Source of the DNA: a bacterium
GTDB taxonomy: Bacteria; Zhuqueibacterota; Zhuqueibacteria; Zhuqueibacterales; Zhuqueibacteraceae
Direction of reading: 5' to 3'
DNA length: 32,277 bases
Assembly: GCA_044869275.1 (NCBI GenBank)
Contig: JBIOXB010000179.1
Location: 1-32,277 of the forward strand
The position numbers were made by a program, and so were the translations under genes. The first letter of the stretch is position 1, and each line of letters begins with the position of its first letter. Shown piece by piece: positions 1 through 19,545 of this stretch. The notes under the pieces are model-generated. The model was not told the origin of the DNA and searched no databases. It was given only the letters and a program-made list of their open reading frames with translations.

Positions 1-716
1 TCAACGAAGCCGCCGCGCGTGTGCTCGGCTGGGCGAATCCTCTCGGCCAGGAGATTCGCGCAGAAGACGACCGATATCGCGCACGCATCGTTGGTGTGGT
101 GAAAGATTTTCATTTTCAATCCTTGCACGAAAGCATCGCCCCGCTGGTGTTGGGGCATTGGAAGAATCCCGTCACCGCTATCGATTATTTCACCGCGCGC
201 ATCAGCACCGGCGCGATGGCGCGAACGCTCGCCGCCTTGCAAAAAGTGCACGAAGAATTCGATCAAACCACGCCCTTCGAATACAATTTTCTCGACGAAC
301 GCTTGAATGATTTTTATCAAGCCGATCTGCGCGTCGGCAAGATCTTCGGCCTTAGCGCGGCGTTGACCATCAGCATCGCCTGCCTCGGGCTGTTGGGACT
401 CGCGGCTTTCATCGCGGAGCAACGCACCAAGGAAATCGGCGTGCGCAAAGTGCTCGGCGCCTCGGTGGGCGGCATTTTGTTCCTGCTTTCAAAAGATTTC
501 ACCAAGCTGATCGTGGCCGCAACGTTGATTGCCGCGCCGCTCGCCTATTTCGGCCTGCAACGCTGGCTGCAAGTTTTCGCGTACCGCATCACTGTCGGCC
601 CGGGAATTTTTTTACTGGCCGGAGTCATGGCCTTATTGCTCGCGCTGCTGACCGTGAGTTTTCAGGCCGTCAAAGCGGCGTTGGCGAATCCGGTGGAGGC
701 GCTGCGGTACGAATAA
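1..716 (+). CDS. MacB/FtsX-family ABC transporter permease #1 (5'-truncated by window edge)
   Basis: Frame is open from base 3 (NEAAARVLGW...). Carries the GVVKDFHF, EQRTKEIGVRKVLGAS and terminal ANPVEALRYE motifs shared with the downstream paralogs. Confidence 0.93.
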   Translation, partial: NEAAARVLGWANPLGQEIRAEDDRYRARIVGVVKDFHFQSLHESIAPLVLGHWKNPVTAIDYFTARISTGAMARTLAALQKVHEEFDQTTPFEYNFLDERLNDFYQADLRVGKIFGLSAALTISIACLGLLGLAAFIAEQRTKEIGVRKVLGASVGGILFLLSKDFTKLIVAATLIAAPLAYFGLQRWLQVFAYRITVGPGIFLLAGVMALLLALLTVSFQAVKAALANPVEALRYE

Positions 717-783
717 GTCATCAGTAACCAGGGATCAGTATTCAGTAACTGGTCACTGGCAACTGAATACTGACTACTGGAGA
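714..783. repeat. Heptamer-built inverted repeat, family A (TCAGTNA / CTGNNNA)
   Basis: taagtca tcagtaa ccaggga tcagtat tcagtaa | ctggtca ctggcaa ctgaata ctgacta ctggaga. Perfect 12-bp IR: TCAGTATTCAGT (735-746) / ACTGAATACTGA (762-773). Confidence 0.9.
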
Positions 784-788
784 GAGAC

Positions 789-3173
789 ATGTTCAAAAAC
801 CATATTCGCATTGCGCTGCGCCAGCTCAGAAAACAGAAAGCCTATGCTTTGATCAACATTTCCGGCTTGGCCCTCGGCATGAGCTGTACTTTTCTCATCC
901 TGCTTTGGGCGCGGGACGAACGGGGTTATGATCAGTTTCATGAAAACGCCGGCAGCATCTATCGCGTCGTGGTAGAATGGAAAGAAAATTCAAGGCGGGG
1001 AGCCAGGACACCAGCGCCGCTGGCGGAAGCTATGCTGCAGGAACTTCCCGAAGTGGCCAAGAGCGTGCGTTTGCACAAAAGGCCGCGCATGGTGTTGCGC
1101 CACGGCGAAAGGGGCTTTTATGAGGAAGGCGAGCTGCGCGCTGATCCCACTTTGTTCGATATTTTCACTTTTCCCTTTGTCGCCGGCAATCGCGAAGCGC
1201 TTGAATCGGGAATGGTGATCACCCAGAAAATGGCGCGAAAATACTTTGGAGAAGCAGATCCCCTTGGCAAGGTTTTGAATGTCAACAACTGGTTCGAAGT
1301 TCCGGTGAGTGGTGTCCTGGCAGAGCTTCCTCGCAATTCTTCGCTCCAGTTTGATTTCGTGCTCGCCCTTAACCCGCTCAAAAAATTCTGGCCGGGAGGC
1401 TTTGGCTGGGGCAACTTCGCGCACGAGACCTTTATCCAGCTTCGCCCGGGCGCCGATCCGGCAGTGGTTGCCCGCCACACCACGGAACTGCTGCGCAAAA
1501 ATGTTCCCGCGATTTCAACGGAACTGAACCGGCTTTATTTGCAGCCCTTGCGGGAGGTGTACCTGAGTCCGGAGGTGCGCGACAGCCAATTTGCGATGGG
1601 AGACAAGAAATACGTTTACGTTTTTTCCGGCGTCGCCTTTCTTGTCCTGATGATCGCCTGCATAAACTTCATGAATCTCGCCACCGCGCGCGCGCTCAGC
1701 CGGACGAAGGAAATAAGCGTACGCAAAGTCATGGGCTCGAGCCGGGCGCAGCTGGTGAGGCAGTTCCTCACGGAATCTGTCTTGCTGTCAATCCTCGCCA
1801 CACTGCTGGCAATCATTTGTGTGGAAATCTTGCTGCCGGCTTTCAATCGAGTTTCCGGAAAGAGCTTGGCGCTGAGCTTTTCCGACCTCCGGCTGTTGTT
1901 GGGTTTGGCGACCATCACTGTCTTAGCGGGCATCGTTGCTGGCAGCTATCCCGCGCTGTATTTGTCATCCTTTCACGCGAGGCATGTGCTCAAGTCCGCC
2001 CCTCTCGCGATGCCATTTGCGCGCGGCAGCGGAAAAGCCGGGCTCCGAAAAGCCCTGGTGGTGTTGCAGTTCGCGCTGGCCATCGTACTGCTAGCCAGCA
2101 CCGCCGTGATTCACGAACAATTGCATTACATGACCCGTCAGCAGCTCGGTTTCGACAAAGACAATCTTGTCTATATCCCGCTCAAAGGCAACTTGGGAGC
2201 GCATTATCGAACGGCCAAGGATGAGCTGCGCAAGCATCCGGAAATTCTGGCCGTGGCGGCGCAAGGATCTGTGCCGACGATCACGGTGAACACCGGCTCG
2301 CTGCTCTGGGAGGGCAAAGATTCAAGAGCGGATTTTCCGGTGGAGGCCAATGCCGTCGATTACAATTTCTTCGAGCTGATGAACATGGAAATGGTCGCGG
2401 GGCGGAGTTTTTCGGAAGCATTTGCTACGGACGCCAGCGCTGCTTTCATCGTCAACGAAGAAACCGTCAAAATGATGGGCATGGCTTCTCCCATTGGCAG
2501 ACAGATTCGCTTGGGCAATAGAAAGGGCGCCATCATCGGCGTGGTCAAGAATGCTCATTTCAAATCCATGCGCCGTAAAATCGAGCCACAAGTTTTTTAT
2601 GTGCCGGCAGACTATAGCACAGAGTTGATGGATTTGTTCGGCATCGTTTTGGTCAAAATAAGAGGCGGCGAGAGGGCAGGAGCCATAGCGCGTCTCGAGC
2701 ACGTTTGGCAACAAGTAAATCCCGATTTTCCTTTCGAATATCACTTTCTCGATCAAACCTACGAAGCGCTGTACCAAAGGGAAGAGCACGCCAGCACGCT
2801 CTTTAACTATTTTGCCCTGCTCGCCGTTCTGCTTTCCTGCCTGGGGCTTTTGGGGCTGGCAGCGTTCACCACCGAGAGCCGGACCAAGGAGGTCGGTATT
2901 CGCAAAGTGCTGGGTGCTTCAGTTTCGCGCCTGGTGCTGCTTTTCACCTCGGATTTTGCCAAATGGGTTCTTCTTGCAAATGTTTTCGCGTGGCCGGTCG
3001 CCTGGCTTGCCACGCAGCACTGGTTGCAGGATTTTGCTTATCATGTTGAAGTAGGTTGGCGGGTGTTCGCATGGGCCGGTGGATTGGCGTTGGTGGTCGC
3101 CCAGCTGACCGTCGGCGTGCAAGCGCTTAAAGCCGCGCTTGCGAATCCGGTGGAGGCTTTGCGGTATGAATGA
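789..3173 (+). CDS. MacB/FtsX-family ABC transporter permease #2 (794 aa; two periplasmic MacB-PCD and two FtsX domains)
   Basis: Starts MFKNHIRIALR. Motifs IACINFMNLATARA, KEISVRKVMG, RTKEVGIRKVLGAS, ANPVEALRYE. Confidence 0.95.
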   Translation: MFKNHIRIALRQLRKQKAYALINISGLALGMSCTFLILLWARDERGYDQFHENAGSIYRVVVEWKENSRRGARTPAPLAEAMLQELPEVAKSVRLHKRPRMVLRHGERGFYEEGELRADPTLFDIFTFPFVAGNREALESGMVITQKMARKYFGEADPLGKVLNVNNWFEVPVSGVLAELPRNSSLQFDFVLALNPLKKFWPGGFGWGNFAHETFIQLRPGADPAVVARHTTELLRKNVPAISTELNRLYLQPLREVYLSPEVRDSQFAMGDKKYVYVFSGVAFLVLMIACINFMNLATARALSRTKEISVRKVMGSSRAQLVRQFLTESVLLSILATLLAIICVEILLPAFNRVSGKSLALSFSDLRLLLGLATITVLAGIVAGSYPALYLSSFHARHVLKSAPLAMPFARGSGKAGLRKALVVLQFALAIVLLASTAVIHEQLHYMTRQQLGFDKDNLVYIPLKGNLGAHYRTAKDELRKHPEILAVAAQGSVPTITVNTGSLLWEGKDSRADFPVEANAVDYNFFELMNMEMVAGRSFSEAFATDASAAFIVNEETVKMMGMASPIGRQIRLGNRKGAIIGVVKNAHFKSMRRKIEPQVFYVPADYSTELMDLFGIVLVKIRGGERAGAIARLEHVWQQVNPDFPFEYHFLDQTYEALYQREEHASTLFNYFALLAVLLSCLGLLGLAAFTTESRTKEVGIRKVLGASVSRLVLLFTSDFAKWVLLANVFAWPVAWLATQHWLQDFAYHVEVGWRVFAWAGGLALVVAQLTVGVQALKAALANPVEALRYE

Positions 3174-3208
3174 GCGGAGGGCGGAGGGCTTAGAGCTTGG
3201 AGCGGAGG
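3174..3208 (+). repeat. Heptamer tandem repeat, family B (left arm only)
   Basis: gcggagg gcggagg gcttaga gcttgga gcggagg immediately after the TGA stop; no reverse-complement arm is seen. Confidence 0.8.
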
Positions 3209-3251
3209 GTAGATATACAATGACCAAGATTGAGATTCAACAACACAAATG

Positions 3252-3325
3252 GGAGGTGGGTTATGGCAAGATTCAGGTTCCAACATCGTGATCATACTTT
3301 CAGACGAAATCTGATCAAGGAGACA
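3252..3325 (+). pseudogene. Possible remnant of a four-helix-bundle (TIGR02436 / 23S_rRNA_IVP-like) gene
   Basis: GGAGG RBS (3252-3256), then ATG 3263 reading MARFRFQ. An alternate frame gives NIVIIL, followed by FRRNLIKE. From memory these resemble the N-terminal and late segments of four-helix-bundle proteins; not verified by search. Confidence 0.4.
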
Positions 3326-3327
3326 TC

Positions 3328-5697
3328 ATGCTCAAAAACTACTTCAAAATCGCCCTGCGTAATTTGCTGAAATACAAACTCAATTCTTTCATCAACATTT
3401 TCGGCTTGGGGATCGCATTTGCCGCGAGCCTTTTAATTTACGTTTTCGCGCGCAACGAGCTGACTTATGATGCTTTTCACAAGAATGCCAAATCGATCTA
3501 CCTCGTTTACAAGGAACGCATTACGCCCACCGGCACGCAGATCACGCGCGATACCTGGCTCCCGATGGCGCAGGCACTCAAGGGCGATTATCCCGCCGTT
3601 GCCAATGCCACCCGCTTGTGGGACGACAACAGTTGGATCGAAGCCAGCGAGCGACGATTTCAAGAGAACATCACCTATGCTGATCCCTCTCTCCTACAAA
3701 TGTTCACCTTCCCCTTACTGCAGGGAGACGCGGCCACGGTTTTTTCCGATCGGCACTCGGCCCTCGTCTCGAAAAAGGTTGCGCATAAATATTTCGGCAA
3801 TGAGGAAGCGATCGGCAAGCGCATCACCATCAATTACAGCACGGATTACGTCATTCGCGGAGTTCTCGAGGACATTCCCTCCAATTCTCAAATTCAAATC
3901 GAGGTGCTCGTGCCCGCCGAAAGCGCTTCGTTCTATGAGGCGAACAAAAACGACTGGGGCAGCTCGTTTGTGTCCACCTTCATTCAGCTCTCACCCGGGA
4001 CCGCCTCCGCCGAGTTGGAAGCGCAGTTTCCAAATTTTGTCACCAAAACCTGGAATGCAGAGATCAATCAGAGCATGAAGCTCAAGCTGACGCCGTTATT
4101 GGAACTTTATAATGAAATCACCGGGGCGCACACCTATGCTTACGTGCTGTTGGGTGTGGCGATGATCATCTTGCTCATCGCTACGATCAATTTCATGAAC
4201 CTCACCACTGCCCGTTCTGTCGAGCGCGCGCGTGAAATCGGCATGCGCAAGGTTTTGGGTGCCCTGCGGCGTGAGTTGATCCGGCAATTCCTCCAAGAGT
4301 CCTTGATGACGGTGATGCTGGCGCTGGTGCTCGGGCTCTGTCTCCTGGAAATCGTTTTGCCGTGGTTCAATTCTCTTTATGGACTCGAGCTTCGCACCGA
4401 TTATCTCAATCATCCGCAGAGCATGCTTGGGCTGCTGGCCTTGGCGGTAGCGGTGGGTTTGCTCTCCGGATTCTATCCCGCCTTCGTGCTCTCGCGCTAC
4501 CAGCCCGGGGAGGCGCTCAAAGGCAGATTCAAGTCCAAACCTGCCGGCTTGCGCTTGCGTTATGGCTTGGTGATCGTGCAGTTCTGTTTGGCCATGATCT
4601 TGATGATCGGCACGGGCGTCATGCGGCGGCAAATTCATTTTATGAAAAATGCCAATCTCAATTTTGACAAAGAAAATGTCATCGCGATTCCGGTGCAGGT
4701 TTCAGATTTCAAAAACCAGGAAGAAGCACGCGTGCGGCTCGAGACTTTCAAGAACGATTTGCGCGAGCAGAGCGGCATTCTAGGGGTGGCGTCGTCCATT
4801 CAAGTGCCGGGAAGATGGCCGAACTCTTTCACATTTGCCTATCCTACTGATCGCGATGATGCTCAACGCCTGCGTGTCCGGCGCGCGCTGGTGGACGAAC
4901 ATTTCTTTGATACTTACGGAATGCACTTCATCGAAGGCCGAAATTTTTCCGAGCAATCGGCTACGGATGCGCAACAGTCGCTGATTCTGAATGAAGCAGC
5001 CTTGCGTGATCTGGGCTGGCCCAACGGCACTGGCCGGCAGATTCGCGTCGGCGAAACGGTTTACAATGTCATAGGCGTGGTCAAAGATTATCATTTTTCT
5101 TCCTTCGCAAATGCCGTCGCTCCGGTGCTGCACTTTTATCGCCCGGCGAATAGCGAGGTGCATCGCGTGATCTCGGTGAAGTTGGCAGCAGGAAATGTTG
5201 CCGCCACTTTGGATTATATTCGCGACCAATGGCGCACCCTCGATCCCGGCCGCCCGCTCGATTTCTTCTTTATCGACGACAATTTCAATCTGCTATACCA
5301 AAGCGAAACGCGTTTGATCACGGCCATCAGCGCCTTTACCGTCCTGGCCATTCTGATCGCCTGTCTTGGACTGTTCGGATTGTCATCCTTGATGGTGGCG
5401 CAGCGCACAAAAGAGATCGGGATTCGCAAGACTCTGGGCGCTTCTCTGGCCAGCATCGTGTTCCTGTTGACGAGAGTTTTCAACAAGCTGGTGATGCTGG
5501 CGTTCATCTTCGCGTGCCCACCGGCGTATTTCGCGGCAAAAACGTGGCTGCAGAATTTCGCTTTTCGCATTGATCTCGGCTGGGAAATTTTCGCCATGAC
5601 CGGTTTGCTCGCGCTCGTGATCGCGTTTCTGACCGTCTGTTTTCAATCGATTAAAGCCGCGCTGGCGAATCCGGTGGAGGCACTGCGTTATGAGTAA
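3328..5697 (+). CDS. MacB/FtsX-family ABC transporter permease #3 (789 aa)
   Basis: AAGGAG RBS; starts MLKNYFKIALRN; motifs INFMNLTTARS, RTKEIGIRKTLGAS, ANPVEALRYE. Confidence 0.95.
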   Translation: MLKNYFKIALRNLLKYKLNSFINIFGLGIAFAASLLIYVFARNELTYDAFHKNAKSIYLVYKERITPTGTQITRDTWLPMAQALKGDYPAVANATRLWDDNSWIEASERRFQENITYADPSLLQMFTFPLLQGDAATVFSDRHSALVSKKVAHKYFGNEEAIGKRITINYSTDYVIRGVLEDIPSNSQIQIEVLVPAESASFYEANKNDWGSSFVSTFIQLSPGTASAELEAQFPNFVTKTWNAEINQSMKLKLTPLLELYNEITGAHTYAYVLLGVAMIILLIATINFMNLTTARSVERAREIGMRKVLGALRRELIRQFLQESLMTVMLALVLGLCLLEIVLPWFNSLYGLELRTDYLNHPQSMLGLLALAVAVGLLSGFYPAFVLSRYQPGEALKGRFKSKPAGLRLRYGLVIVQFCLAMILMIGTGVMRRQIHFMKNANLNFDKENVIAIPVQVSDFKNQEEARVRLETFKNDLREQSGILGVASSIQVPGRWPNSFTFAYPTDRDDAQRLRVRRALVDEHFFDTYGMHFIEGRNFSEQSATDAQQSLILNEAALRDLGWPNGTGRQIRVGETVYNVIGVVKDYHFSSFANAVAPVLHFYRPANSEVHRVISVKLAAGNVAATLDYIRDQWRTLDPGRPLDFFFIDDNFNLLYQSETRLITAISAFTVLAILIACLGLFGLSSLMVAQRTKEIGIRKTLGASLASIVFLLTRVFNKLVMLAFIFACPPAYFAAKTWLQNFAFRIDLGWEIFAMTGLLALVIAFLTVCFQSIKAALANPVEALRYE

Positions 5698-5758
5698 TTC
5701 GCACGCAGCACGCGGTTTCCATCAAAAGAGCCTTCAACACCTCTCAAAGGACAAGCTC

Positions 5759-6784
5759 ATGAAAGCACATCTAGACAGTACACTCCATTTGGCATTCGGC
5801 TTTATCATGGCCGCTGCACTCGATTTTGGTGTTGCGAGCGATTGCTTCTCGCAATCCCGCCACGCCTACGCTTCCGCCCAGCCCATCCGCGAACCGATCC
5901 TGTTCGGTGCCGGTGTGATTTCCACCCCGCTGGATGAATTGAACGCCTGCTTCACGCCGGAGGGCGAGACCATCTATTATTGCCTCAACGCGCCGAGCAA
6001 TCGTATCGGCGTGATCGTGTTTTCTCGTTTTGAAAAGGGCAAATGGCGCACGCCACAAGTCGCGGCTTTTTCCGGACAATATACCGACTATGATCCTTTC
6101 ATCTCGCCGGAGGGCAGCAAGCTTTTCTTCATTTCCAATCGCCCCATTGCAGGAAAACCGGTCGAGGGCAAGCGCCCGAATTTCGATATTTGGGTGATGG
6201 AAAAAACAACAGCCGGCTGGAGCGAGCCCTCCAATCTCGGCGCGCCGGTCAACAACGAGGCGGATCAATTCTATCCTTCGGTCGCAGCGAATGGCACACT
6301 CTATTTCAGCACGATCAAGCAAGGTGAAAAAAGTGGATTTGATTTGTATCGCGCCCGGTGGGTGGAGGGCAAATATGCCGAACCGGAGAAACTGAGCGAG
6401 AACGTCAACTCGCAGTTTGCGGAAATCGACGCCTGTATCGCCCCCGATGAAAGCTTCATCGTGTTTGCCAGCTACAATCGTCCCGAGGAATTGGGTCGTG
6501 GCGATCTTTACCTCAGCTACAACCAAAACGGCGAATGGACGCCGGCAAAGAACCTCGGCGAGAAAATCAATTCCAACGCGCGCGAGTATTGCCCCATTCT
6601 CTCGCCCGACGGCAAATATTTCTTTTTTACCAGTTTTCGCGGTTTCGCGGACAAACCGCTGGACAAAGCTCTGACTCATGAACAATTCGTGCAACATCTG
6701 CGCAGCCCGTTGAACGGCACGGGAAATGTGTATCAGGTGGACGTCAGCGTGCTGCATGAGCAGCGGCCTGGAAGTGATGAATGA
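5759..6784 (+). CDS. Exported PD40 (WD40-like / TolB-like) beta-propeller protein
   Basis: Repeated PD40 motifs (DYDPFISPEGSKLFFISNRP; QFYPSVAANGTLYFS; EYCPILSPDGKYFFFTS) and a hydrophobic N-terminus. ATG 5759 after AAAGGA is preferred over 5690, which overlaps the upstream gene. Confidence 0.85.
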   Translation: MKAHLDSTLHLAFGFIMAAALDFGVASDCFSQSRHAYASAQPIREPILFGAGVISTPLDELNACFTPEGETIYYCLNAPSNRIGVIVFSRFEKGKWRTPQVAAFSGQYTDYDPFISPEGSKLFFISNRPIAGKPVEGKRPNFDIWVMEKTTAGWSEPSNLGAPVNNEADQFYPSVAANGTLYFSTIKQGEKSGFDLYRARWVEGKYAEPEKLSENVNSQFAEIDACIAPDESFIVFASYNRPEELGRGDLYLSYNQNGEWTPAKNLGEKINSNAREYCPILSPDGKYFFFTSFRGFADKPLDKALTHEQFVQHLRSPLNGTGNVYQVDVSVLHEQRPGSDE

Positions 6785-6785
6785 A

Positions 6786-6864
6786 ACAGTGGTCAGTAAT
6801 CAGTGATTAGTGATCAGTATCCACTGATTACTGTTCACTGATTACTGCACGCTGTGCACTGTCC
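6786..6864. repeat. Heptamer-built inverted repeat, family A
   Basis: acagtgg tcagtaa tcagtga ttagtga tcagtat cc actgatt actgttc actgatt actgcac gctgtgc actgtcc. Perfect 13-bp IR: CAGTAATCAGTGA (6794-6806) / TCACTGATTACTG (6835-6847); loop about 6819-6822. Confidence 0.9.
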
Positions 6865-6877
6865 TCGGGAGATGATC

Positions 6878-9301
6878 ATGCTCAACCACTACCTCAAGAT
6901 TGCCTTACGCAACGTGTTCAAGCAAAAGGCCTATTCGTTCATCAACATTTTCGGCCTGGCGGTGGGTATTGCCTGTTGCCTACTGGTCATTCTGTTCGTG
7001 CGGCATGAAAAAAGCTATGATCTTTTTCATGAAAACGGCAGCCGTATTTTTCGCGTGAATTTGGAAAAGAAAACTCCAGCGGGCAGCACGGAACTCAGTG
7101 CGGGGCAGCCGGTGCCGCTGCTCCCGGCGTTACGCGAAAACTTTCCAGAAATCGAACTTGCCACGCGCTTGAAACAGGGTTCCGCCGTGGTGCGCTCTTC
7201 CGGGAACAATGCCACGCACGAAACCTTGTACTTCGCTGATCCAAATTTCTTCACCATGTTTTCTTTTCCCCTAGTCCACGGCAGCGCGGCGGCAGCATTG
7301 TCCCATAAGTCTGCCATTGTCTTGAGCGAAACCGCTGCGCGAAAGTATTTTGGCAAAGACCCGCCACTGGGAAAAACGTTGGCACTCAATTTCGGTGATG
7401 GTTTTCATGATTACCTGGTTTCCGGCGTGGTCAAAAAAATGCCGAGCACTTCGAGCATACAATTTGATTTTTTGCTGCCCTATGAGAATTCACCGAATTA
7501 CGACAATCTTGCAACCCTCTGGACGTCTTGGGGCGCGGTGACATTCATTCAGCTCGCGCGCGGCGCTTCACCCGCGGCATTGCAAGGCAAGCTCGACAGC
7601 ATCATCAAGAATTATTACGGCGAATTGATTCAAACCTGGCAAATTTTGGGCTGGATGGCAAAGGAAGAGGGGGCTTTGAAATTGCAATTGCAGCCGCTCG
7701 CCGCCATTCATCTGGAAGCGCACGTGCAGAACGGCTTGCTGCCCACCAGCAATCCCGCCTACTCTTACATTCTTGCCGGCATCGGCTTGATGGTCTTGTT
7801 GATCGCTTGCATTAATTTCACCACGCTGGCGATTGGCCGCGCCGCCGGCCGCACGCAGGAAATCGGCGTGCGTAAAACGCTGGGCGCAGTTCGCAGCCAG
7901 GTCATGGGACAATTCTGGGGCGAAGCGTTGTTGTTCAGCGTGCTGGCTTTGTGCTTGGGCATCGCACTCGCCGAAGCTTTCCTGCCGGTTTTCAGTGCCC
8001 TGGCAAATCGCTCGCTGGCCATCGGATATTTCGAGAGCTGGGAGATGCTCGGCATTTTCGCCGGGTTGGCATTGTTCGCCGCCCTGGCCGCGGGCAGTTA
8101 CCCGGCGCTTTTTCTCTCGCGCTTTCATCCCGCCGCAACATTGAAAAACAAAACCCCACTCGGCGGCAAGAATCGCTTGAGCCAGGCGTTGGTCGTGGTG
8201 CAATTCTCGCTTTCCGTGCTGCTGATCATTTGCACGCTCGTGATGTCCGGTCAATTGCGCCTGTTGAAAAACGCCAATCCCGGATTTAACGCAGAACAAA
8301 TCGTGGTCATTCCTACCAACACCAGGCAGGGCGAGGGCGAAAAGCTGCTCGCGCTTTGCCGGCAAAAGCTTTCCGGACAAACGAACGTACTCGGCCTCAC
8401 CGGCAATTCCGATGGTTTCAATAAAGAGCCTGGCTGGAAGGCTTTTGGCACCGCCAGCGGCGCGACCTGGCAGGTGAATCTCATGCGCGTTGATCCCGAA
8501 TTCCTCCAGACCTTCGACATGCAAATCGTGCAAGGCCGGGACTTCTCCCGGGAAATGACCTCAGACGCGACGAACGCTGTGATCGTGAACGAAGCGTTGG
8601 TCAGAGAATTTGGCTGGCAGGAGCCGGTGGGACGAAAGTTCGAGGACTTTGCTTTGCGCGGCGTGCAGGAACCGACCATCATCGGCGTGGTGAAAGATTT
8701 TAACTATGCGTCTCTGCACGAGGCGGTCAAGCCCATGGTTTTGCATCTCGATCCCACGGAAGAGATAAGGTATCTTTTTGTGAGAATCGCGCCGGGCAAT
8801 TTTGCCGCAAGCTTGGCGTTGTTGAGCAACACCTGGCGGGAAATCGCGCCGGCGAAGCCGTTCAATTACTATTTTCTCGATGAAGATTTCGACCAGCAAT
8901 ATCGCGCGGAAGAACGCTGGGCGCAAATCGTGCTGTATTCCACATCATTTGCGATCGTCATCGCCGGTATCGGCCTGCTGGGATTGTCGGCGCTCACCGT
9001 GACCAAGCGCACCAAAGAAATCGGCATTCGCAAAGTGCTGGGTGCTTCGGTGTTTTCTGTAGTGCGCTTGTTGACAGATGAGTTCGTGATCCTGGTGGCA
9101 TTGGCAAACCTCCTCGCCTGGCCTGTAGCTTATTTCGCCATGCGTCAATGGTTGCAGGATTTTGCGTATCGCATCGAAATCAGCTGGCAGGTTTTTGCGC
9201 TGGCAGGACTGGCGGTGTTGTTGTTGGCATTGGTAACGGTGAGCTGGCAGGCGATCAAGGCGGCGTTGGCAAACCCGGCGGCGGCGTTGAGGTATGAGTA
9301 G
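6878..9301 (+). CDS. MacB/FtsX-family ABC transporter permease #4 (~807 aa)
   Basis: Start MLNHYLKIALRN at ATG 6878 after GGAG, matching paralog N-termini; motifs IACINFTTLA, RTKEIGIRKVLGAS, ANPAAALRYE. Confidence 0.95.
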   Translation: MLNHYLKIALRNVFKQKAYSFINIFGLAVGIACCLLVILFVRHEKSYDLFHENGSRIFRVNLEKKTPAGSTELSAGQPVPLLPALRENFPEIELATRLKQGSAVVRSSGNNATHETLYFADPNFFTMFSFPLVHGSAAAALSHKSAIVLSETAARKYFGKDPPLGKTLALNFGDGFHDYLVSGVVKKMPSTSSIQFDFLLPYENSPNYDNLATLWTSWGAVTFIQLARGASPAALQGKLDSIIKNYYGELIQTWQILGWMAKEEGALKLQLQPLAAIHLEAHVQNGLLPTSNPAYSYILAGIGLMVLLIACINFTTLAIGRAAGRTQEIGVRKTLGAVRSQVMGQFWGEALLFSVLALCLGIALAEAFLPVFSALANRSLAIGYFESWEMLGIFAGLALFAALAAGSYPALFLSRFHPAATLKNKTPLGGKNRLSQALVVVQFSLSVLLIICTLVMSGQLRLLKNANPGFNAEQIVVIPTNTRQGEGEKLLALCRQKLSGQTNVLGLTGNSDGFNKEPGWKAFGTASGATWQVNLMRVDPEFLQTFDMQIVQGRDFSREMTSDATNAVIVNEALVREFGWQEPVGRKFEDFALRGVQEPTIIGVVKDFNYASLHEAVKPMVLHLDPTEEIRYLFVRIAPGNFAASLALLSNTWREIAPAKPFNYYFLDEDFDQQYRAEERWAQIVLYSTSFAIVIAGIGLLGLSALTVTKRTKEIGIRKVLGASVFSVVRLLTDEFVILVALANLLAWPVAYFAMRQWLQDFAYRIEISWQVFALAGLAVLLLALVTVSWQAIKAALANPAAALRYE

Positions 9302-9375
9302 CTGAGGGCGGAGGGCAGAGGGCAGAGGGCATGGCGCAAAGCGCATAGCATGTACAAGGCTACACACTATGCGCT
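9301..9375. repeat. Heptamer repeat / hairpin, family B (GCAKAGS / GCTMTGC)
   Basis: gctgagg gcggagg gcagagg gcagagg gcatggc gcaaagc gcatagc, then a short inverted arm ctatgcgct (9367-9375). Confidence 0.85.
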
Positions 9376-9417
9376 CGGCGTTTTGTTTTCTCCGTCCCGT
9401 ATTTTCAAATTCGACTT

Positions 9418-9433
9418 TGTGATAAATCTCACA
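9418..9433. promoter_or_regulatory. Candidate CRP/FNR-family (or Rex-like) operator, TGTGA-N6-TCACA
   Basis: Exact TGTGA TAAATC TCACA palindrome 120 bp upstream of permease #5, in the longest spacer of the array. Confidence 0.4.
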
Positions 9434-9553
9434 GGATCGATCAGCGTGACGCGCCGGTTTTCATAAGCACAAAGGTTGCCGGAAGCCAACCGCGAAGCGG
9501 CGAAATCACTATAGACGATAGGCGCAAACAATCGCAAAACCCTGGAGTCAGCG

Positions 9554-11929
9554 ATGCTAAGCAATAATCTTAAAATTGCGTTCCGCCATCTGTTCAAACA
9601 CAAAGGCCACGCCTGCATCAACCTCGCCGGCCTGGCCGTGGGCATGGCGTGCTGCCTGCTCATTTTACTATACGTGCAGAACGAGCTCAGCTACGATCAG
9701 TACCACCAAAAGAAGAACAGGATTTACCGCCTGGCGACGCGCATGCAAAGCGCCTCATTCGACGGTATTGCGAAAGTGAACGGCCCATGGGGTCCTGCCG
9801 TCAAAAAGGAAGTGCCGGAAGTAGAGGAGTCTGTGCGTTTTGTGATCGTAGGGCAGATTTTAGTCGGCAAAGGTGAAAAGCGTTTCTACGAGAACGAGGG
9901 TTTGTACGCCGATTCCACGGTCTTGCAGGTTTTTAGTTTTCCGCTGATTCAAGGCGACGCCCGCACCGTGCTTGCCGCACCCAACACCATCGCCGTTACC
10001 CGCCGCTTCGCGGAGAAATACTTTGGCGAGGAAAGCCCGATGGGGCAGACGCTGCTTTTTGACAATCAGACCGAGTACACCATCACCGGCTTGCTGGATA
10101 ATATTCCTGAGAATTCGCACTTCACCTTTGATTTCCTGCTGTCGATGGCCAGCCTCACACATCCGCAGCGTGACAGTTGGGTGCAATGGAATCAGTTCTA
10201 CACGTATGTTTTGCTGCGGGAAGGCGCACAAACACAAATGGTCGAAGCCAAAATTCCGGCGATTTTGCGGCAAAACATGGGCGAGGAGGCGGCCGCGCGC
10301 TATACACCATTTTTGCAGCCCATGACCAGCATTCATTTGCACTCGCATTTATTTCGCGAAATGGCGGCCAATTCCGACATCGTCTTCATCTATATTTTCT
10401 CCAGCGTCGCGTTGTTTGTTCTGATCATCGCTGCCATTAATTTCATCAACCTCAGCACGGCACAAGCCACGCGCCGCGCCAAAGAAGTCGGGGTCCGCAA
10501 AGTCTTGGGCTCGCAGCGCCAGCAGCTCATCAGACAGTTTCTCACGGAAGCGATTTTGCTGTGCTTGCTCGCGGTGCTGCTGGCGATTAGTCTGGCGGAG
10601 TTTCTGCTGCCCTCCTTCAATGCGCTGGTGGGCAAGAGCCTCGAAATTTCCTGGTTCAAGAATCCACTGCTGTGGCTGGCGGCGCTGGGATTCACCCTGC
10701 TGATCGGCGCGCTCGCCGGCAGTTATCCCGCTTTCGCTCTGTCTGCTTTCCAACCGGTGATTACGCTCAAGGGGCAAGCGGCAGGGCTGTCGAAAAAATC
10801 CGCCTCGCGCAACGGCTTGGTGGTTTTTCAGTTCGCGCTGTCCGCGTTTCTGCTCATGGCTACCGGCGTCATCTTCCGGCAAAGCCAATTCATTCGCGAA
10901 AAAAATCTTGGCTTCAACACCGAGCAAATTGTCACGATTCCGATTCAAAATCCTGCGCTCAGAAATAAATCCGAATCCATCAAACAAGAACTGTTGCAGC
11001 ACCCCAACGTGGTGCAAGTCTCGGCCTCGGCAAATTTACCCGGCGGCGGTGATTGGGGCATTCCCACACAGCCCGAAGGCGTCGCACCTGAACACGCGCC
11101 GCCCATGCGCATGCTTGTGGTTGATCATGATTTTCTGAATACGTTCGAGATCGAAATCGCCAAAGGGCGAAATTTTTCCAAGGAGATGGCCAGCGACAGC
11201 ACGCACGCGTTCATGCTGAACGAAGAGGCCGCGCGGCAATTGCACTGGGCCGAACCTCTCTCCAAAACCATTGCCATGCCCGCGATTCAGCGCGAGCGTG
11301 CGCCGGTGATCGGCGTGGTGAAGGACTTCCATTTCCGTTCATTGCACGAAAGCATCGGCCCGTTACTCATTTTCATCGCACCGCCGGATTGGCTCACGGT
11401 TTTTTCCGTGCGCCTGCGCCCGCAAAACATACCGGAGACCTTGAAATTCTTGGAAGAGAAATGGCGGGAGTTTGATCCCGATCATCCCTTTACTTATTCC
11501 TTTGTGGATGAACGCCTGGCGCGTCTTTATCAAAGCGAAGCGCGCCTGCAAGCGATGTCGGCTTACGCCGCCGGGCTGGGCATTTTCATCGCCTGCCTGG
11601 GCTTGTTTGCCTTGGTTTCATTCGCCACCGCGCAGCGCACCAAAGAAATCGGCATTCGCAAAGTGCTCGGCGCCACGGCCACGAGCATCGTGGGTTTGCT
11701 TTCTAAAGAAACTCTAAAGCTGGTGATCATAGCCAATCTCCTCGCCTGGCCCATAGCCTATTTCGTGATGAAGCGCTGGCTGCAGGATTTTGCCTATCGC
11801 ACGGAATTGCACCCGGGCATTTTTACCCTCACGGCCGTGATCACGATAGCGATCGCGTTTCTAACTGTCGGCTACCAGTCGATCAGAGCGGCATTGGCGA
11901 ATCCGGTGCAGGCGCTGCGATATGAATAA
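9554..11929 (+). CDS. MacB/FtsX-family ABC transporter permease #5 (791 aa)
   Basis: GGAG RBS; motifs INFINLSTAQA, RTKEIGIRKVLGA, ANPVQALRYE. Confidence 0.95.
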   Translation: MLSNNLKIAFRHLFKHKGHACINLAGLAVGMACCLLILLYVQNELSYDQYHQKKNRIYRLATRMQSASFDGIAKVNGPWGPAVKKEVPEVEESVRFVIVGQILVGKGEKRFYENEGLYADSTVLQVFSFPLIQGDARTVLAAPNTIAVTRRFAEKYFGEESPMGQTLLFDNQTEYTITGLLDNIPENSHFTFDFLLSMASLTHPQRDSWVQWNQFYTYVLLREGAQTQMVEAKIPAILRQNMGEEAAARYTPFLQPMTSIHLHSHLFREMAANSDIVFIYIFSSVALFVLIIAAINFINLSTAQATRRAKEVGVRKVLGSQRQQLIRQFLTEAILLCLLAVLLAISLAEFLLPSFNALVGKSLEISWFKNPLLWLAALGFTLLIGALAGSYPAFALSAFQPVITLKGQAAGLSKKSASRNGLVVFQFALSAFLLMATGVIFRQSQFIREKNLGFNTEQIVTIPIQNPALRNKSESIKQELLQHPNVVQVSASANLPGGGDWGIPTQPEGVAPEHAPPMRMLVVDHDFLNTFEIEIAKGRNFSKEMASDSTHAFMLNEEAARQLHWAEPLSKTIAMPAIQRERAPVIGVVKDFHFRSLHESIGPLLIFIAPPDWLTVFSVRLRPQNIPETLKFLEEKWREFDPDHPFTYSFVDERLARLYQSEARLQAMSAYAAGLGIFIACLGLFALVSFATAQRTKEIGIRKVLGATATSIVGLLSKETLKLVIIANLLAWPIAYFVMKRWLQDFAYRTELHPGIFTLTAVITIAIAFLTVGYQSIRAALANPVQALRYE

Positions 11930-11980
11930 ACTGCGCGCAAGTATTTTGGCGAGGAACACCCGCTGAGCAAAAGCTTGCGG
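11930..11980 (+). pseudogene. 51-bp internal relic of another permease paralog
   Basis: Translates TARKYFGEEHPLSKSLR, matching the motif at about residue 150 of every full paralog (e.g. TAARKYFGKDPPLGKTL, SAKKYFGDDDPMGKILR). Confidence 0.8.
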
Positions 11981-11985
11981 GAACG

Positions 11986-12067
11986 GCGTAACGCAAAGCG
12001 CAAAGGGCATAGCGCATAGCGCATAGCGAAGAGAGAGACGCTATGCGCCATGCTCTTTGCGCTCTGC
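11986..12067. repeat. Heptamer-built inverted repeat, family B
   Basis: gcgtaac gcaaagc gcaaagg gcatagc gcatagc gcatagc [gaagagagagac] gctatgc gccatgc tctttgc gctctgc. Confidence 0.92.
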
Positions 12068-12104
12068 CAAACCAAGATCATCAATTCAAACCAGGAGAAG
12101 CCTC

Positions 12105-12362
12105 ATGCCCACAATTTCCATCCAATTGCCCGCGATCGAAGCCGACCAGCAAGTCGAGGTCGAGGTCAAAATCAACGGCCAGAAGAAGCAATATCATTAT
12201 CGCGTCGAAATTTTCGCTTGGGAGCAATGCCCAGATCCCGCGGAAGAACGCGTGAAGTGCTTGCAGCGCATGATCACGGGATATGACAAAGAATGGCAAT
12301 TGGTGCAAATTGGCGCGCCTTTGGAAAAATCGATTCCGATTATGTTCAAGCAAAAGCATTGA
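12105..12362 (+). CDS. Small soluble hypothetical protein (85 aa)
   Basis: AGGAG RBS at 12093-12097, ATG 12105; MPTISIQLPAIEADQQVEVEVKINGQKKQYHYRVEIFAWE... has protein-like composition and fills the gap between two hairpins. Confidence 0.8.
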   Translation: MPTISIQLPAIEADQQVEVEVKINGQKKQYHYRVEIFAWEQCPDPAEERVKCLQRMITGYDKEWQLVQIGAPLEKSIPIMFKQKH

Positions 12363-12373
12363 TGGGGAAGAGA

Positions 12374-12456
12374 GCATAGCGCATAGCGCAGAGGGCAGAG
12401 CGCAGAGGCGATTCCCTCTGCGCCATGCCCTCTGCACTATGCCCTCTGCTCTCAGC
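12374..12456. repeat. Heptamer-built inverted repeat, family B
   Basis: gcatagc gcatagc gcagagg gcagagc gcagagg [cgattc] cctctgc gccatgc cctctgc actatgc cctctgc tctcagc, ending directly at the AAGGAG RBS. Confidence 0.92.
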
Positions 12457-12468
12457 AAGGAGACAACC

Positions 12469-14883
12469 GTGTTCAAAAACTACTTCAAAATCGCCTATAG
12501 GAGTTTTCTGAAATACAAAGCCTATTCGTTTATCAACATCGCCGGGCTGGCGCTCGGCTTGGCTTGCTGCATTTTGATTTTGCTTTACATACAGGATGAG
12601 CTGAGCTACGACAAATTCCACGCGCAAGCCGGGCGGATTTACCGCGTGGTGTGGGAAGAAAACCAGGAAGGCCGTGTGCGGCGCCTGGCCAGTACATTTG
12701 CGCCTTTGACGCCGGCGTTGCGCGCCGAATTTCCTGAAATCTCGCAGATGGTGCGGCTGTTCCCTTACGGCGCCACCGTGGCGCGCGATCAAGAGCGGCG
12801 CTTTCAGGAAAGCCGCTTTCTCTTTGTGGATTCGACCTTTTTCGAGGTTTTTGATTTTCCCTGGCAGCGAGGAGAGGCGCGCACGGCGCTGCACGGGCCG
12901 AATTCCTTGGTGCTCACCGCAGCGAGCGCCAAAAAATATTTTGGCGACGATGACCCCATGGGGAAGATTCTGCGCGTGGAGAACAATCAGGATTTCGAAG
13001 TGACTGGCGTTCTGCAGAACGTGCCCTCCCATTCGCATTTCGATTTCGACTTCCTCGCCAATCTCAACGGCGTTAAAGCCATTTTAGGGCCGTGGGTGCT
13101 GCAAAGGGGCTGGTACTACCCGCCCATGTACACGTATATTTTGCTCCCGCCGCACGCCTCCCCGGAAAAAATTGCCGGCCGTTTGCCCGAATTTGTGCAG
13201 AAATATTTCCCCAAGAATCTCGCTTCGTATACCAAACTGCAACTACAGCCTCTGGCCGCCATTCATCTTTATTCCGATTTGGAAGATGAAATCGCGCCCA
13301 CGAGCAGCATCGCATACGTTTACATTTTTTCGGCGATTGCCGCCTTCATTCTGTTGATCGCGTGCATCAATTTCATGAATCTCGCCACCGCGCGTTCCGC
13401 GACGCGCGCGCGCGAAGTGGGTCTGCGCAAAGTCGTGGGCGCGGAAAGATCGCAATTGATTGGCCAGTTTTTGGGCGAGTCTTTGCTGTGCGCCGTGCTG
13501 GCTTTGTTCTTCGCGCTGATGCTCGTCGAAGTCTTTCTGCCAATGTTCAACACGCTTTCGGCCAAGCAACTTGATTTGAATCTTGGCCGCAATGGGACGA
13601 TCGTGCTCGGCATGCTGGCGCTGGCGTTGGTCGCGGGAATCCTGGGCGGAAGTTATCCGGCTCTTTTCCTTGCGCGCTTTCGCCCGGTGCAGGCTTTGAA
13701 AGGCCAGGCGCTGGCGAGTCCGGCAGGGCGCACGCCCCTGCGCCTGCGCGCTCTGCTCGTGATCGTGCAGTTCGCCGTTTCCGTGGTGTTGCTGATCGTG
13801 ACCTGGGTGGTGCAGGAACAGTTGCAGTTCATTCAGAACCGGCGTTTGGGTTTCGACAAATCGCACATACTCGTGATCCCGATCAAAGATGAAGCAGTGC
13901 AGCAGAATTTTGCCGCGATCAAGAACAACTTTTCGTCCCTTTCCGGCATTTCCCGGATCTCCGCGATCTCGAATTTTCCCTGGGAAAAAGGCTACTACGA
14001 CTTTTTCGTGCGTGCCGAGGGCATGCGTGCGGAAGAGAAATTCAATATGCCGACATTGCTGGTTGATTATGATTTCATTCCCGCGTTCGGAATGGAAATC
14101 GTCGCGGGGAGGGATTTTTCAAAAGAGCACGCCACCGATGCGCAGCAAGCGTTCATCCTCAATGAAACCGCCGTTAAAAAATTGGGCTGGCAGGTGGCGG
14201 TGGACAAGAAAATCGAGATGGAGGCCGTGTCCGCGGGAAAACCGCGCACAGGCAGAGTCATTGGCGTGGTCAAAGATTTTCACTTGCGCTCGCTGCATCA
14301 CACCGTCGAGCCGCTGGCCCTGCTGCTCGCGCCGGCGCCGTACTACCTCGACAACATGGCGATTCGCCTCGAGGCGCAAAATATTCCGCACACGCTTTCC
14401 GCTTTGGAACGCAAGTGGCGCGACCTCGTGCCGCACCGGCCGTTTGACTATTTCTTCTTGGAGGAAGCGTTCGACGCTCTCTATCGCAGGGAACGCAGGC
14501 TGGCGCAAATCTTCGGGTATTTTGCCGCACTGGCCATTTTTGTCGGAGGCCTCGGCCTGTTCGGGTTGGCTTCGTTCATGGCCGAGCAAAAGACCAAAGA
14601 GATCGGTATTCGCAAGGTGCTCGGCGCCTCGGTAGCGGGCATCGTCGCCCTGCTTGCGAAGGATCTCGTCAAGCTCGTGCTCGCCGCGAATCTCATCGCA
14701 TGGCCCGTTGCCTTTTTTGGCATGAATAAATGGCTGCAAGGCTATGCTTATCGCATCGAGATGAGCATATGGACGTTTGCCGCGGCCACCATCATCGCGT
14801 TAACCATCGCTCTGCTCACCGTCAGCTATCAAACCACCAAAGCGGCGCTGGCGAATCCGGTGGAGGCGTTGCGGTATGAATAG
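12469..14883 (+). CDS. MacB/FtsX-family ABC transporter permease #6 (~804 aa)
   Basis: GTG 12469 after AAGGAG gives (M)FKNYFKIAYRS like the paralogs; motifs IACINFMNLATARS, KTKEIGIRKVLGAS, ANPVEALRYE. Confidence 0.95.
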   Translation: MFKNYFKIAYRSFLKYKAYSFINIAGLALGLACCILILLYIQDELSYDKFHAQAGRIYRVVWEENQEGRVRRLASTFAPLTPALRAEFPEISQMVRLFPYGATVARDQERRFQESRFLFVDSTFFEVFDFPWQRGEARTALHGPNSLVLTAASAKKYFGDDDPMGKILRVENNQDFEVTGVLQNVPSHSHFDFDFLANLNGVKAILGPWVLQRGWYYPPMYTYILLPPHASPEKIAGRLPEFVQKYFPKNLASYTKLQLQPLAAIHLYSDLEDEIAPTSSIAYVYIFSAIAAFILLIACINFMNLATARSATRAREVGLRKVVGAERSQLIGQFLGESLLCAVLALFFALMLVEVFLPMFNTLSAKQLDLNLGRNGTIVLGMLALALVAGILGGSYPALFLARFRPVQALKGQALASPAGRTPLRLRALLVIVQFAVSVVLLIVTWVVQEQLQFIQNRRLGFDKSHILVIPIKDEAVQQNFAAIKNNFSSLSGISRISAISNFPWEKGYYDFFVRAEGMRAEEKFNMPTLLVDYDFIPAFGMEIVAGRDFSKEHATDAQQAFILNETAVKKLGWQVAVDKKIEMEAVSAGKPRTGRVIGVVKDFHLRSLHHTVEPLALLLAPAPYYLDNMAIRLEAQNIPHTLSALERKWRDLVPHRPFDYFFLEEAFDALYRRERRLAQIFGYFAALAIFVGGLGLFGLASFMAEQKTKEIGIRKVLGASVAGIVALLAKDLVKLVLAANLIAWPVAFFGMNKWLQGYAYRIEMSIWTFAAATIIALTIALLTVSYQTTKAALANPVEALRYE

Positions 14884-14955
14884 CAGAGCGCAAAGTGCAG
14901 AGCGCATGGCGTAAACTCACGCTTTGCGCTATGCGCTCTGCCCTCTGCTCTCAGC
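14883..14955. repeat. Heptamer-built inverted repeat, family B
   Basis: gcagagc gcaaagt gcagagc gcatggc [gtaaactcac] gctttgc gctatgc gctctgc cctctgc tctcagc, spanning stop codon to RBS. Confidence 0.92.
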
Positions 14956-14967
14956 AAGGAGACAACC

Positions 14968-17337: not shown

Positions 17338-17464
17338 CAGTCGGGTGGTGCTTCGAAGGTGAGATCGCACTTCCCGCCTCTCTCGGGCAGCCGCGCGGAA
17401 ACAGAAAGAACATGACCACAAGAATAAAAATGAAAAGCGCGATCGCCGGAATTTTGCCTTTCAT
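17315..17464 (-). CDS. Putative 49-aa single-pass membrane peptide
   Basis: GGAAGGAG RBS 7 nt before ATG 17464; MKGKIPAIALFIFILVVMFFLFPRGC... has a basic N-terminus and one hydrophobic helix; overlaps the permease #7 3' end by 23 bp. Confidence 0.45.
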   Translation of the reverse strand: MKGKIPAIALFIFILVVMFFLFPRGCPREAGSAISPSKHHPTVIHSGGH

Positions 17465-17642
17465 AACGATTCTCCTTCCTGCATGGCTGAGAAGCAACTG
17501 ACATTTATCCGACGTGGGGATGAAGGCAACGGACAGTGAAGAATTCACTCTGAAAAGCGCTGGCAACTCCTTATACTACATTATTGAGAAACGGTTGCGT
17601 TGCGAGCAGGGGGTATTGGCAAAGATGGAGTGATGTTTGGAC

Positions 17643-17730
17643 TGGGAGACGGGGAGAGTGGGGGATGGGGAGAGTGGGGGATGGGGAGAGTGGGGGACGG
17701 GGAGACGGGGAGACGGGGAGAGTGGGAGAT
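17643..17730. repeat. G-rich octamer tandem repeat (11 units, KGGGRGAN)
   Basis: tgggagac ggggagag tgggggat ggggagag tgggggat ggggagag tgggggac ggggagac ggggagac ggggagag tgggagat. Confidence 0.92.
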
Positions 17731-17753
17731 TGTTGGAGTTGGCGAAAGGGTCC

Positions 17754-18422
17754 TTATTGAAAACTGTTGGCGAGTTCCTGAGTTTTGTCCGATTCGTGAA
17801 TATGAACTCCGGTAAGGCTCATTTTCGCGACGTTGATCATTGCCGCTGCAACTGCAAGCGCAGCAATCGGGCGGTATTTTCGCCGCCGGCCCACGAGTAA
17901 AAAGGCAAACGACTTCATTAGAATCTCCCCGACTTTTTCGCCGAACCGAAACTCTGCACGATGTCCCACTAGTAATGAAGGCCGGAAAATGTGAATGGCG
18001 CGAAAAGGCAATTTTTGAATGGCCTCTTCCACTTCCCCCTTGACGCGATTGTAAAAGATTGCCGACCCCGGATTGGCGCCGACTGCTGTCACCAGCAAAA
18101 ACTGCTCTGCCCCATTTTGCGCTGCGAGCTTCGCGGCGGTGACAGGATACTCAAAATCGACGCGGCGAAACGCTGCCTGTGAGCCGGCTTTCTTAATCGT
18201 CGTCCCCAAACAGCAGAAGACGTCATGCACGCGCTTGAGCGGCGCATGTTTTTCCAATTGCTCGAAATCGACGGCGTGCTGTTCCAGCTTGGATTGCTGG
18301 CGGGACAAACTTCTTCGCACCAGGACGATGACGCGATCATAAGCGGGATCGGCAAGCAGCAAGTTGAGAGCATGACCGCCCACCAACCCGCTGGCGCCGA
18401 GCAATAAGGCAGACCTGGGCAT
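17754..18422 (-). CDS. NAD(P)-binding atypical SDR oxidoreductase (TIP30/CC3/YraR-like)
   Basis: N-terminal Rossmann motif LLGASGLVG; FCCLGTTIKKAGS, VDFEY, YNRVKGEVE and IFRPSLL motifs; AGGAAGG RBS. Confidence 0.88.
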   Translation of the reverse strand: MPRSALLLGASGLVGGHALNLLLADPAYDRVIVLVRRSLSRQQSKLEQHAVDFEQLEKHAPLKRVHDVFCCLGTTIKKAGSQAAFRRVDFEYPVTAAKLAAQNGAEQFLLVTAVGANPGSAIFYNRVKGEVEEAIQKLPFRAIHIFRPSLLVGHRAEFRFGEKVGEILMKSFAFLLVGRRRKYRPIAALAVAAAMINVAKMSLTGVHIHESDKTQELANSFQ

Positions 18423-18447
18423 TTCACCTTCCTCCGCTGCAAACGAG

Positions 18448-18474
18448 AGGCCGGCCGTTGTGGACGGCCGGTCT
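18448..18474 (-). terminator. GC-rich hairpin, possible terminator or processing stem downstream of the DUF2911 gene
   Basis: AGGCCGGCCGT-tgtgg-ACGGCCGGTCT; the U-tract is weak. Confidence 0.35.
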
Positions 18475-18507
18475 GCCGTCTCTTTTTAAGGCGAGACGAT
18501 CACTTGT

Positions 18508-19520: not shown

Positions 19521-19545
19521 TTCGATCTCCAGGAACAAAAAATTT

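Follow-up and report, generated by a model that had tools for sequence, protein, structure and literature searches.

Heptamer hairpins between the genes of an ADOP-like permease array point to a widespread intervening-sequence-type element outside rRNA

Several described systems place repeats or palindromes between bacterial genes. In integron cassette arrays, intact genes stand in variable order with palindromes (attC) between them, alongside opposite-strand cargo and the integrase IntI; repetitive extragenic palindromic (REP) elements are known for roles of their own, and the short tandemly repeated repetitive (STRR) sequences of cyanobacteria are heptamer repeats comparable to those treated here. 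We analysed a 32,277-nt stretch of DNA from a member of the Zhuqueibacteraceae (contig JBIOXB010000179.1, hereafter the window, which is the whole of contig C179 in genome G000; 6.67 Mb, 94% complete), in which tandem 7-mers and their reverse complements form hairpins between the genes of a MacB/FtsX permease array. The feature is an intervening sequence (IVS)-type element outside rRNA that is REPIN-like in its behaviour and saturates a shuffled array of ADOP-like permeases. A dedicated recombination system, the possibility raised by an earlier reading made without database searches (the sequence-only reading), is unlikely.

The rRNA IVS (S23p; Coxiella, Leptospira) offers a close parallel, since its terminal inverted repeats enclose, in their loop, a four-helix-bundle gene of the family found here. 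According to the passages of Warrier et al. (2016; PMC4990558) that deal with the Coxiella IVS, tandem heptamers (GACAGAT) precede its open reading frame (ORF), their copy number varies between strains and the ORF is prone to deletion. Unlike the rRNA IVS, the copies described here lie between protein-coding genes, include hundreds without a gene and are built from many unit families. A second parallel is the TAACTGA heptamer repeat of Beggiatoaceae, cyanobacteria and Bacteroidetes, whose binder is given as unknown in the relevant parts of MacGregor (2015; PMC4679880); the right arm of one of our families (family E) consists of this word or near variants just 5′ of start codons (714–783 and 6786–6864). 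The published repeats are mostly direct, and in the passages searched in that paper the terms intervening sequence, four-helix and S23 do not occur, whereas the arms here are paired and linked to a protein clade. REPIN/RAYT systems (PMC3337134) likewise consist of intergenic inverted repeats in several families per genome, each with a partner gene and located near stops, but our arms are tandem 7/8-mers rather than single palindromes and their partner is a four-helix bundle rather than an HUH transposase; none of the six Y1 (HUH) matches in the genome had an arm within 700 nt.

The permease array itself resembles the ADOP clusters outlined in portions of two papers, namely a 42-kb cluster in Psychroflexus torquis (PMC3914696) and 28–33 copies in Dyadobacter (PMC11573002), which share the tandem paralogs, the two MacB_PCD plus two FtsX domains and the intermixed small cargo genes; junction repeats and order changes, seen here, are unmentioned in those portions. 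A domain search found the duplicated MacB_PCD+FtsX architecture of ADOP permeases in the window permeases, but against the ADOP model (TIGR03434) they score 244–328 bits, below the curated cut-off of 622. The likeness to integron arrays extends to the variable order of intact genes, the palindromes between them and the opposite-strand cargo, but there is no IntI and no attC core, the spacers are not carried with the genes, and the same hairpins occur genome-wide. In a literature search that lacked most subscription journals and supplements, neither the gene-plus-arms class outside rRNA nor junction repeats in permease arrays was found described.

Within the window, all seven intervals singled out by the sequence-only reading hold tandem 7-mers, in the two unit families it had named. 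Five are full hairpins, for which folding was scored against 200 dinucleotide shuffles: family E (left units CAGTNAT, right units of the TNACTGA type) at 714..783 (z −3.7), running from the stop codon to the Shine–Dalgarno (SD) sequence, and at 6786..6864 (z −9.2), and family C at 11986..12067 (z −7.2), at 12366..12456, ending at the SD (z −8.5 for 12374–12456), and at 14883..14955, again from stop codon to SD (z −6.7). Of the other two family-C sites, 9301..9397 has a decayed right arm (z −1.9 for 9301–9375, −4.2 for 9301–9405) and 3174..3208 is a left arm alone, with GCGGAGG/GCTTAGA units (z +0.6). The left arms at 714, 3174, 6786, 9301 and 14883 begin inside or a few bases from a stop codon; AAGGAG follows immediately on two right arms, those ending at 12456 and 14955, and the right arm at 783 overlaps GGAG. 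The hairpin at 11986 is separated from the stop of permease P5 by a 51-nt permease fragment. Together with the armless gap between permease P3 and the PD40 gene (5698–5758) and a stem at the 3′ end of permease P7 that is not built of heptamers, this fragment leaves unconfirmed the idea that every gene is delimited by palindromes. As had been reported, no GTTRRRY attC core occurs in any of the seven sites and no T-run directly follows their ends, the extended 9301 stem then meeting a short T stretch at ~9400. Rfam gave no match within 1–20000, and only a loose match to a GTAG/CGTC-type tag, as in REPINs, was seen at the hairpin foot, in 2/6 sites and on one side only. Past the end of the array, an octamer array (GGGGAGA-type; 17640..17730) forms one arm of the same class, from a family that is paired elsewhere.

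Judged from their sequences, the window hairpins in all likelihood derive, by loss of the gene, from an element that sets a four-helix-bundle gene (TIGR02436, the family of the rRNA intervening-sequence protein) between inverted 7/8-mer arms. Nine of the ten TIGR02436 genes in this genome have arms beside them, as read by eye, each of a different unit or variant. One of them, on contig C185, shows the complete order of left arm, gene and right arm with GCAKRGC arms, inside a permease–permease junction, so that an S23p/four-helix-bundle ORF between inverted repeats is found there and, in broken form, at 3242–3325 of the window. Across 100 four-helix-bundle loci from this genome and its relatives, inverted arms were scored automatically under strict criteria in 54, and for the 78 with a clear arm the units were within two letters of each other in all 36 protein pairs above 80% identity, compared with 8% of the 2582 pairs below 30%. 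The two unit families of the window correspond to two protein clades, MAR/KFRFQ with GCAKRGC (family C) and LPHAKSFR with CAGTNAT (family E).

Because relatives are not independent, clade-C loci were then taken from a species collection, and the best 80 of 122 loci (from Ignavibacteria, Desulfobacterales, Nitrospirae, Balneolaceae, Kiritimatiellales and others) were surveyed. A family-C arm was present upstream in 69, inverted downstream in 67 and on both sides in 61, against at most 2 for unrelated families and 8–9 for a related A-rich family. At 16 of these 80 loci a permease lay within 3 kb, and six (one of them a Calditrichia record) had permeases on both sides at a distance of no more than ~160 nt. 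The view that structure rather than sequence is conserved finds no support: through the clade–unit link across phyla, each unit follows one four-helix-bundle clade, and its sequence is conserved with the protein. Nor are the two arms of a hairpin co-adapted, their match being 0.836 to each other and 0.817 to the arms of other hairpins in the family (p 0.19), with within exceeding between in 103/202 hairpins on a coarse measure; three small families did show a higher within-hairpin match. In genomes G004 and G010, full hairpins stand on both sides of the four-helix-bundle gene, as they do around the 85-aa gene of the window. Two side observations concern related loci. In one four-helix-bundle clade the proteins carry an RNKNRGYM extension at the N terminus, and the units that go with it are 8-mers rather than 7-mers (C165:2226, C174:7867; L097, L105, L111, L116, L117), and several GxxExxY (TIGR04256) genes lie between inverted arms of ~9-nt period, a parallel gene-plus-arms class (in this genome C235:3701-4042, C113:9461-9802, C211, C139:3919 and C203:25984).

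The clade–unit match across phyla, together with roughly one four-helix-bundle gene for each unit family in this genome, raises the possibility that the four-helix-bundle protein binds its own unit. Under such a reading, which we hold only tentatively, a pentamer would bind the unit in mRNA or single-stranded DNA (ssDNA) and act in trans on the gene-less copies, so that a family would be a regulon or be moved by the protein, and the hairpin shape would be a by-product of two inverted binding arrays. The commonest arm length is 4–5 units (187/414), and the protein (isoelectric point 9.1) has a homolog, 2GSC (E 3e-10), which has five chains and is described as a homopentamer in part of PMC4990558; MacGregor (2015) proposed, in a section of PMC4679880, a repeat-binding protein as the mobile element. 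The same match would arise from linkage alone, however, and binding is so far a prediction; the similar pentamer Avd binds nucleic acid without detectable specificity, as stated in a portion of PMC5758913, and the Coxiella protein is apparently not made in vivo according to a passage of PMC4990558. Among the PDB matches of the four-helix-bundle protein there was no Avd chain, and the three reverse transcriptase (RT) loci of the genome, examined for an Avd-type diversity-generating retroelement, lie on other contigs or far from TIGR02436 matches. No nuclease motif is known in the TIGR02436 family, which also counts against a protein of this kind acting on the copies.

Behind the lone left arm at 3174–3208 lies a doubly deleted remnant of a clade-C four-helix-bundle gene (3242..3325, + strand). 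It consists of the leader, the SD and the first seven codons (MARFRFQ) joined to an internal piece, the rest of the gene and the right arm being deleted. Against the intact gene on C185, 33/38 and 35/46 nt are identical; it was also aligned with two relatives. The alignment to the C185 gene scores 84, a value to which 20 nt of permease start contribute, as against a maximum of 35 in 200 shuffles. Comparable broken four-helix-bundle copies occur in the arrays of G009, G010 and G001. Two further remnants were recognised. At 9433..9465 (− strand), a fragment of an opposite-strand cargo gene, presumably Uma2-like by resemblance, matches in 25/33 nt a gene that is intact at the same junction in G001, the genome on which this call rests and which, like G014, is unpublished; and at 11930..11980 (+ strand), 17 codons of an internal fragment of a deleted permease gene were found by tblastn (E 2e-8). 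Since these three remnants terminate outside the hairpins, the gene losses were not precise. As separate observations, opposite-strand small gene pairs and presumed Uma2-like genes recur at differing array junctions (G004:C120, G010:C99, G001:C191, G007:C6 and G016), much like the cargo of integron arrays, and a second small conserved ORF of ~80–90 aa with a MNLKEILQK-like start occurs in array junctions of G004:C120, G005:C13, G010:C11 and G012:C64.

The arms are not confined to the permease array. Tandem arrays of period 7 (342) and period 8 (149) stand out in the genome, where the remaining periods between 4 and 12 give 6–42 arrays each, and 303 of the 342 period-7 arrays are not entirely within a called ORF (gene calls were our own heuristic, 4922 genes). 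With profiles of 18 unit families applied to intergenic regions of 20–1500 nt, and a null in which every third region was shuffled and the count scaled, arms were detected in 585/3857 regions (~15%; null ~3). These dispersed inverted repeats fall into families, as REPINs do, and an array-specific system, as the sequence-only reading had it, is thereby rejected. Frequencies were 16% in ordinary co-directional gaps (479/3073), 13% in convergent and 7% in divergent ones (28/396). The first arm lay at most 8 nt from the stop in 63/115 non-permease hairpins (30 expected), and no clear target motif was seen 5′ of the stop codon. Counted without regard to orientation, there were 214 full hairpins at non-permease and 17 at permease sites.

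Permease junctions are nevertheless the place where the arms reach saturation. All 23 permease–permease junctions of this genome carry arms, 16–17 of them as full hairpins and 19 of family C, and in relatives arms occur in 53/64 short permease junctions (null 1.8), with a full stem in 28/64 and other unit families predominating. That the repeats mark the permease junctions is borne out. Other tandem-paralog junctions are not enriched (13/67), which rules out tandem paralogy as such as the attractant. One way to account for saturation is selection for an RNA stem at every joint of the long polycistron, where it would serve as an RNase III site or a REP-like 3′ barrier that sets permease stoichiometry, with any family sufficing. 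Saturation does persist with different families in different genomes, the family is swapped at one site (3′ of the 85-aa gene), arms abut stops and are scarce between divergent genes, and promoter- or terminator-like sites are not in excess within 1–18000; in addition, the Coxiella IVS is cut by RNase III at the first heptamer of its stem, as reported in part of PMC4990558. RNase III is present in 29/30 relatives and was not found in this assembly, likely an assembly gap, and its loss as a ground for tolerating the hairpins is ruled out. Against an RNA role, the mRNA strand shows no surplus of G–U pairs over A–C mismatches (363 vs 331 overall, p 0.24; 25 vs 15 at permease junctions, p 0.15; 30 vs 44 in relatives), and strand bias toward wobble pairs is thus null; the arms are not co-adapted, 6–7 of the 23 junctions lack a full stem, and many junctions in relatives have arms without one. 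We therefore regard selection for a stem as a rather doubtful explanation.

What does distinguish the array is its gene order. We grouped 181 permeases from the fetched array regions of 14 genomes, covering part of the arrays, at 54% identity. Members of one orthogroup had the same downstream neighbour in 13/150 comparisons, or 13/39 among those in which each genome showed both neighbours, with some adjacencies common to related genomes. Relative order was reversed in 46/119 comparisons (45/115 without the unpublished G001 and G014), so that whole genes do change order between genomes; losses alone are therefore insufficient, and loss-only descent from a single ancestral order is ruled out by 41/90 reversals even without orthogroup 2. 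The polA-rsb-mla block, by comparison, is collinear on one contig in 8/11 family genomes and split over contigs in 3. The genes that move are coherent, residues 30–730 clustering with their own orthogroup in 103–108 of 108 genes per segment, whereas the last 60 residues do so much less (66 and 21/108). Exchanges thus fall near the gene tips, and chimeric permeases through internal crossovers are rare.

The spacers follow the genome and not the gene. Likeness is higher between same-genome paralogs (0.081/0.070) than between orthologs in other genomes (0.039/0.046), and tracts of at least 18 nt are shared at the two ends by 0 and 0 of 292 ortholog pairs, by 8 and 18 of 1381 same-genome paralog pairs and by 9 and 17 of 11201 cross-genome paralog pairs. 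The tract 12442..12496 (+ strand), comprising a right-arm end, SD, GTG start and first codons, is identical to 14941–14995 in 54/55 nt, although the proteins concerned, P6 and P7, are 33% identical; it is best read as a recent conversion between neighbouring junctions. Longer shared tracts between junctions occur in G010, one of them identical over more than 100 nt.

Scrambled order of intact genes, with small opposite-strand cargo at varying junctions, is also what would be expected if, along the lines of the sequence-only reading, a tyrosine recombinase or HUH enzyme acted in trans on folded ssDNA hairpins to excise and insert permease cassettes, and the genome does hold five tyrosine-recombinase loci, six Y1 HUH matches and three RT matches. 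Arms do not enclose any of these 14 loci, one RT having a hairpin on its downstream side alone, and no IntI exceeds the cut-off in this 94% complete genome (TIGR02249 best 117 vs 265 bits). With no attC core at the seven sites, spacers that are not carried with the gene (the 0/292 ortholog pairs), remnants ending outside hairpins and most arms sitting between ordinary genes, an integron-like enzyme is very improbable, and precise enzymatic excision or insertion finds no support at this locus. Even less probable is that order changes and shared tracts are misassemblies at repeats in short-read metagenome bins. All genomes are fragmented, and independent contigs of DNA run X1 break at shared junction words; yet the shared tracts are mostly below 60 nt, some adjacencies are common to related genomes, and contigs from X1 cover the window in an order identical to that of the assembly, with no differences in the eight pieces listed, although X1 may be the source run.

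The account that we consider probable combines gene-less element hairpins with homologous recombination and conversion in an old paralog array. Deletion of the four-helix-bundle gene would leave a hairpin behind, and slippage would alter the number of units per arm; the elements lie directly behind stop codons genome-wide. The permeases would be an ancient array whose sole well-conserved DNA is the gene tips, so that tip, spacer and tip form a quasi-repeat of ~150 nt between genes. Since clade C occurs in permease arrays across phyla, the element most likely entered such arrays long ago and then decayed to hairpins; and because conserved tips flank each spacer, arms could be copied from joint to joint, a spacer copying that would yield arm saturation and one dominant family per genome. 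Crossovers within the quasi-repeats would shift whole genes and scramble their order. Homologous recombination between direct repeats is well established, and the agent would presumably be of the RecA type; the seeding route of new sites is something that we infer. Because arms saturate the junctions and whole genes swap order, "cassette-like" fits the outcome, most likely reached without a dedicated recombinase.

Several points weigh against this account. The enrichment p-value at permease junctions is overstated because junctions are not independent. Synonymous sites at the tips are hardly homogenised (0.57/0.59 within genomes vs 0.56/0.57 between), hence conversion must be short or infrequent, and broad homogenisation of the coding tips is not seen at these sites. 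The orthology loss in the last segment may reflect scant signal (0.82 vs 0.80 identity), and the identical tract of more than 100 nt in G010 could be an assembly error. The relatives are too distant for base-level breakpoints, their arrays were fetched in part and the gene calls are heuristic. Outside the permease tips, 3′ of the 85-aa gene, the hairpin is of family C in G016 and of family E in G005 and G014, a swap that junction conversion does not explain and that points toward targeted insertion or a stem maintained by selection. Finally, in four DNA runs examined as contigs, which lose rare variants, gene removal at a hairpin was seen in none of the 15 joints listed (of 56), whilst one low-depth contig of run X3 lacks 7 nt, that is one unit, at 12023.

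The remainder of the window gives the setting. In a linked protein clade, the nearest named members bear the label candidate division KSB1 and others 'bacterium' or 'Cytophagia', which makes KSB1 a presumed affiliation. Positions 1–17337 contain seven two-lobed MacB/FtsX permeases, six complete and one partial, mutually 32–43% identical, out of 44 two-lobed permease ORFs spread over 12 contigs of the genome. All on the + strand, they are the 3′ part of P1 (21..716, with an FtsX domain, truncated by the contig start), P2 (789..3173, 794 aa, orthogroup 17, 2× MacB_PCD plus 2× FtsX) and, from domain search and orthogroup clustering, P3 (3328..5697, 789 aa, orthogroup 27), P4 (6878..9301, 807 aa, orthogroup 9), P5 (9554..11929, 791 aa, orthogroup 2) and P6 (12469..14883, 804 aa, orthogroup 10), followed by P7 (14968..17337, 789 aa, orthogroup 3), the last of this array piece. 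The orthogroup 2 permease has no permease within 1.6 kb downstream in 7/7 relatives and is frequently last in their arrays, but is internal here. A PD40 beta-propeller protein (5759..6784, +), which has no arm upstream and different neighbours in G016, sits within the array as cargo. The conserved 85-aa protein (12105..12362, +) has no Pfam/NCBIfam match; its homologs in relatives (60–86%) lie close to permease or ABC ATPase genes, the hairpin family beside it varies between relatives, and its Atlas match (0.96) is to an unnamed cluster most frequent in Bacteroidota. Beyond the array, 19741–28314 carries polA, then GAF-SpoIIE, anti-sigma, STAS and an Mla-type operon, collinear throughout the family. 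At the junction of mlaD and a lipoprotein gene (27562–27744), an A-rich 7-mer pair encloses a long loop, its right arm seemingly within the signal-peptide region and retained in several relatives, its left arm variable. Two D-Ala-D-Ala-ligase-like genes and a GNAT gene follow (29508–32123), and the contig end (32152–32277), probably an insertion-sequence end, is 99–100% identical to the ends of C171, C186 and C229.

The locus joins three separately published things, namely four-helix-bundle genes of the IVS type, heptamer repeats between genes that lack an explanation, and large clusters of ADOP-like permeases. Through the rule of one clade to one unit, the decades-old question of which factor produces and binds these repeats becomes testable. 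Scrambled yet intact, anciently diverged permeases suggest that conserved tips and repeat spacers may give cassette-like behaviour without an integrase. A bolder and, in our estimate, unlikely extension is that the protein of each clade reads its own 7/8-mer as a pentamer and seeds or marks post-stop hairpins. The permease hairpins would then have become functional joints in a cassette array that does without an integrase, reshuffling dozens of export permeases and tuning their expression by position. If that were true, the orphan IVS protein family would gain a function and the heptamer repeats of bacteria would be explained.

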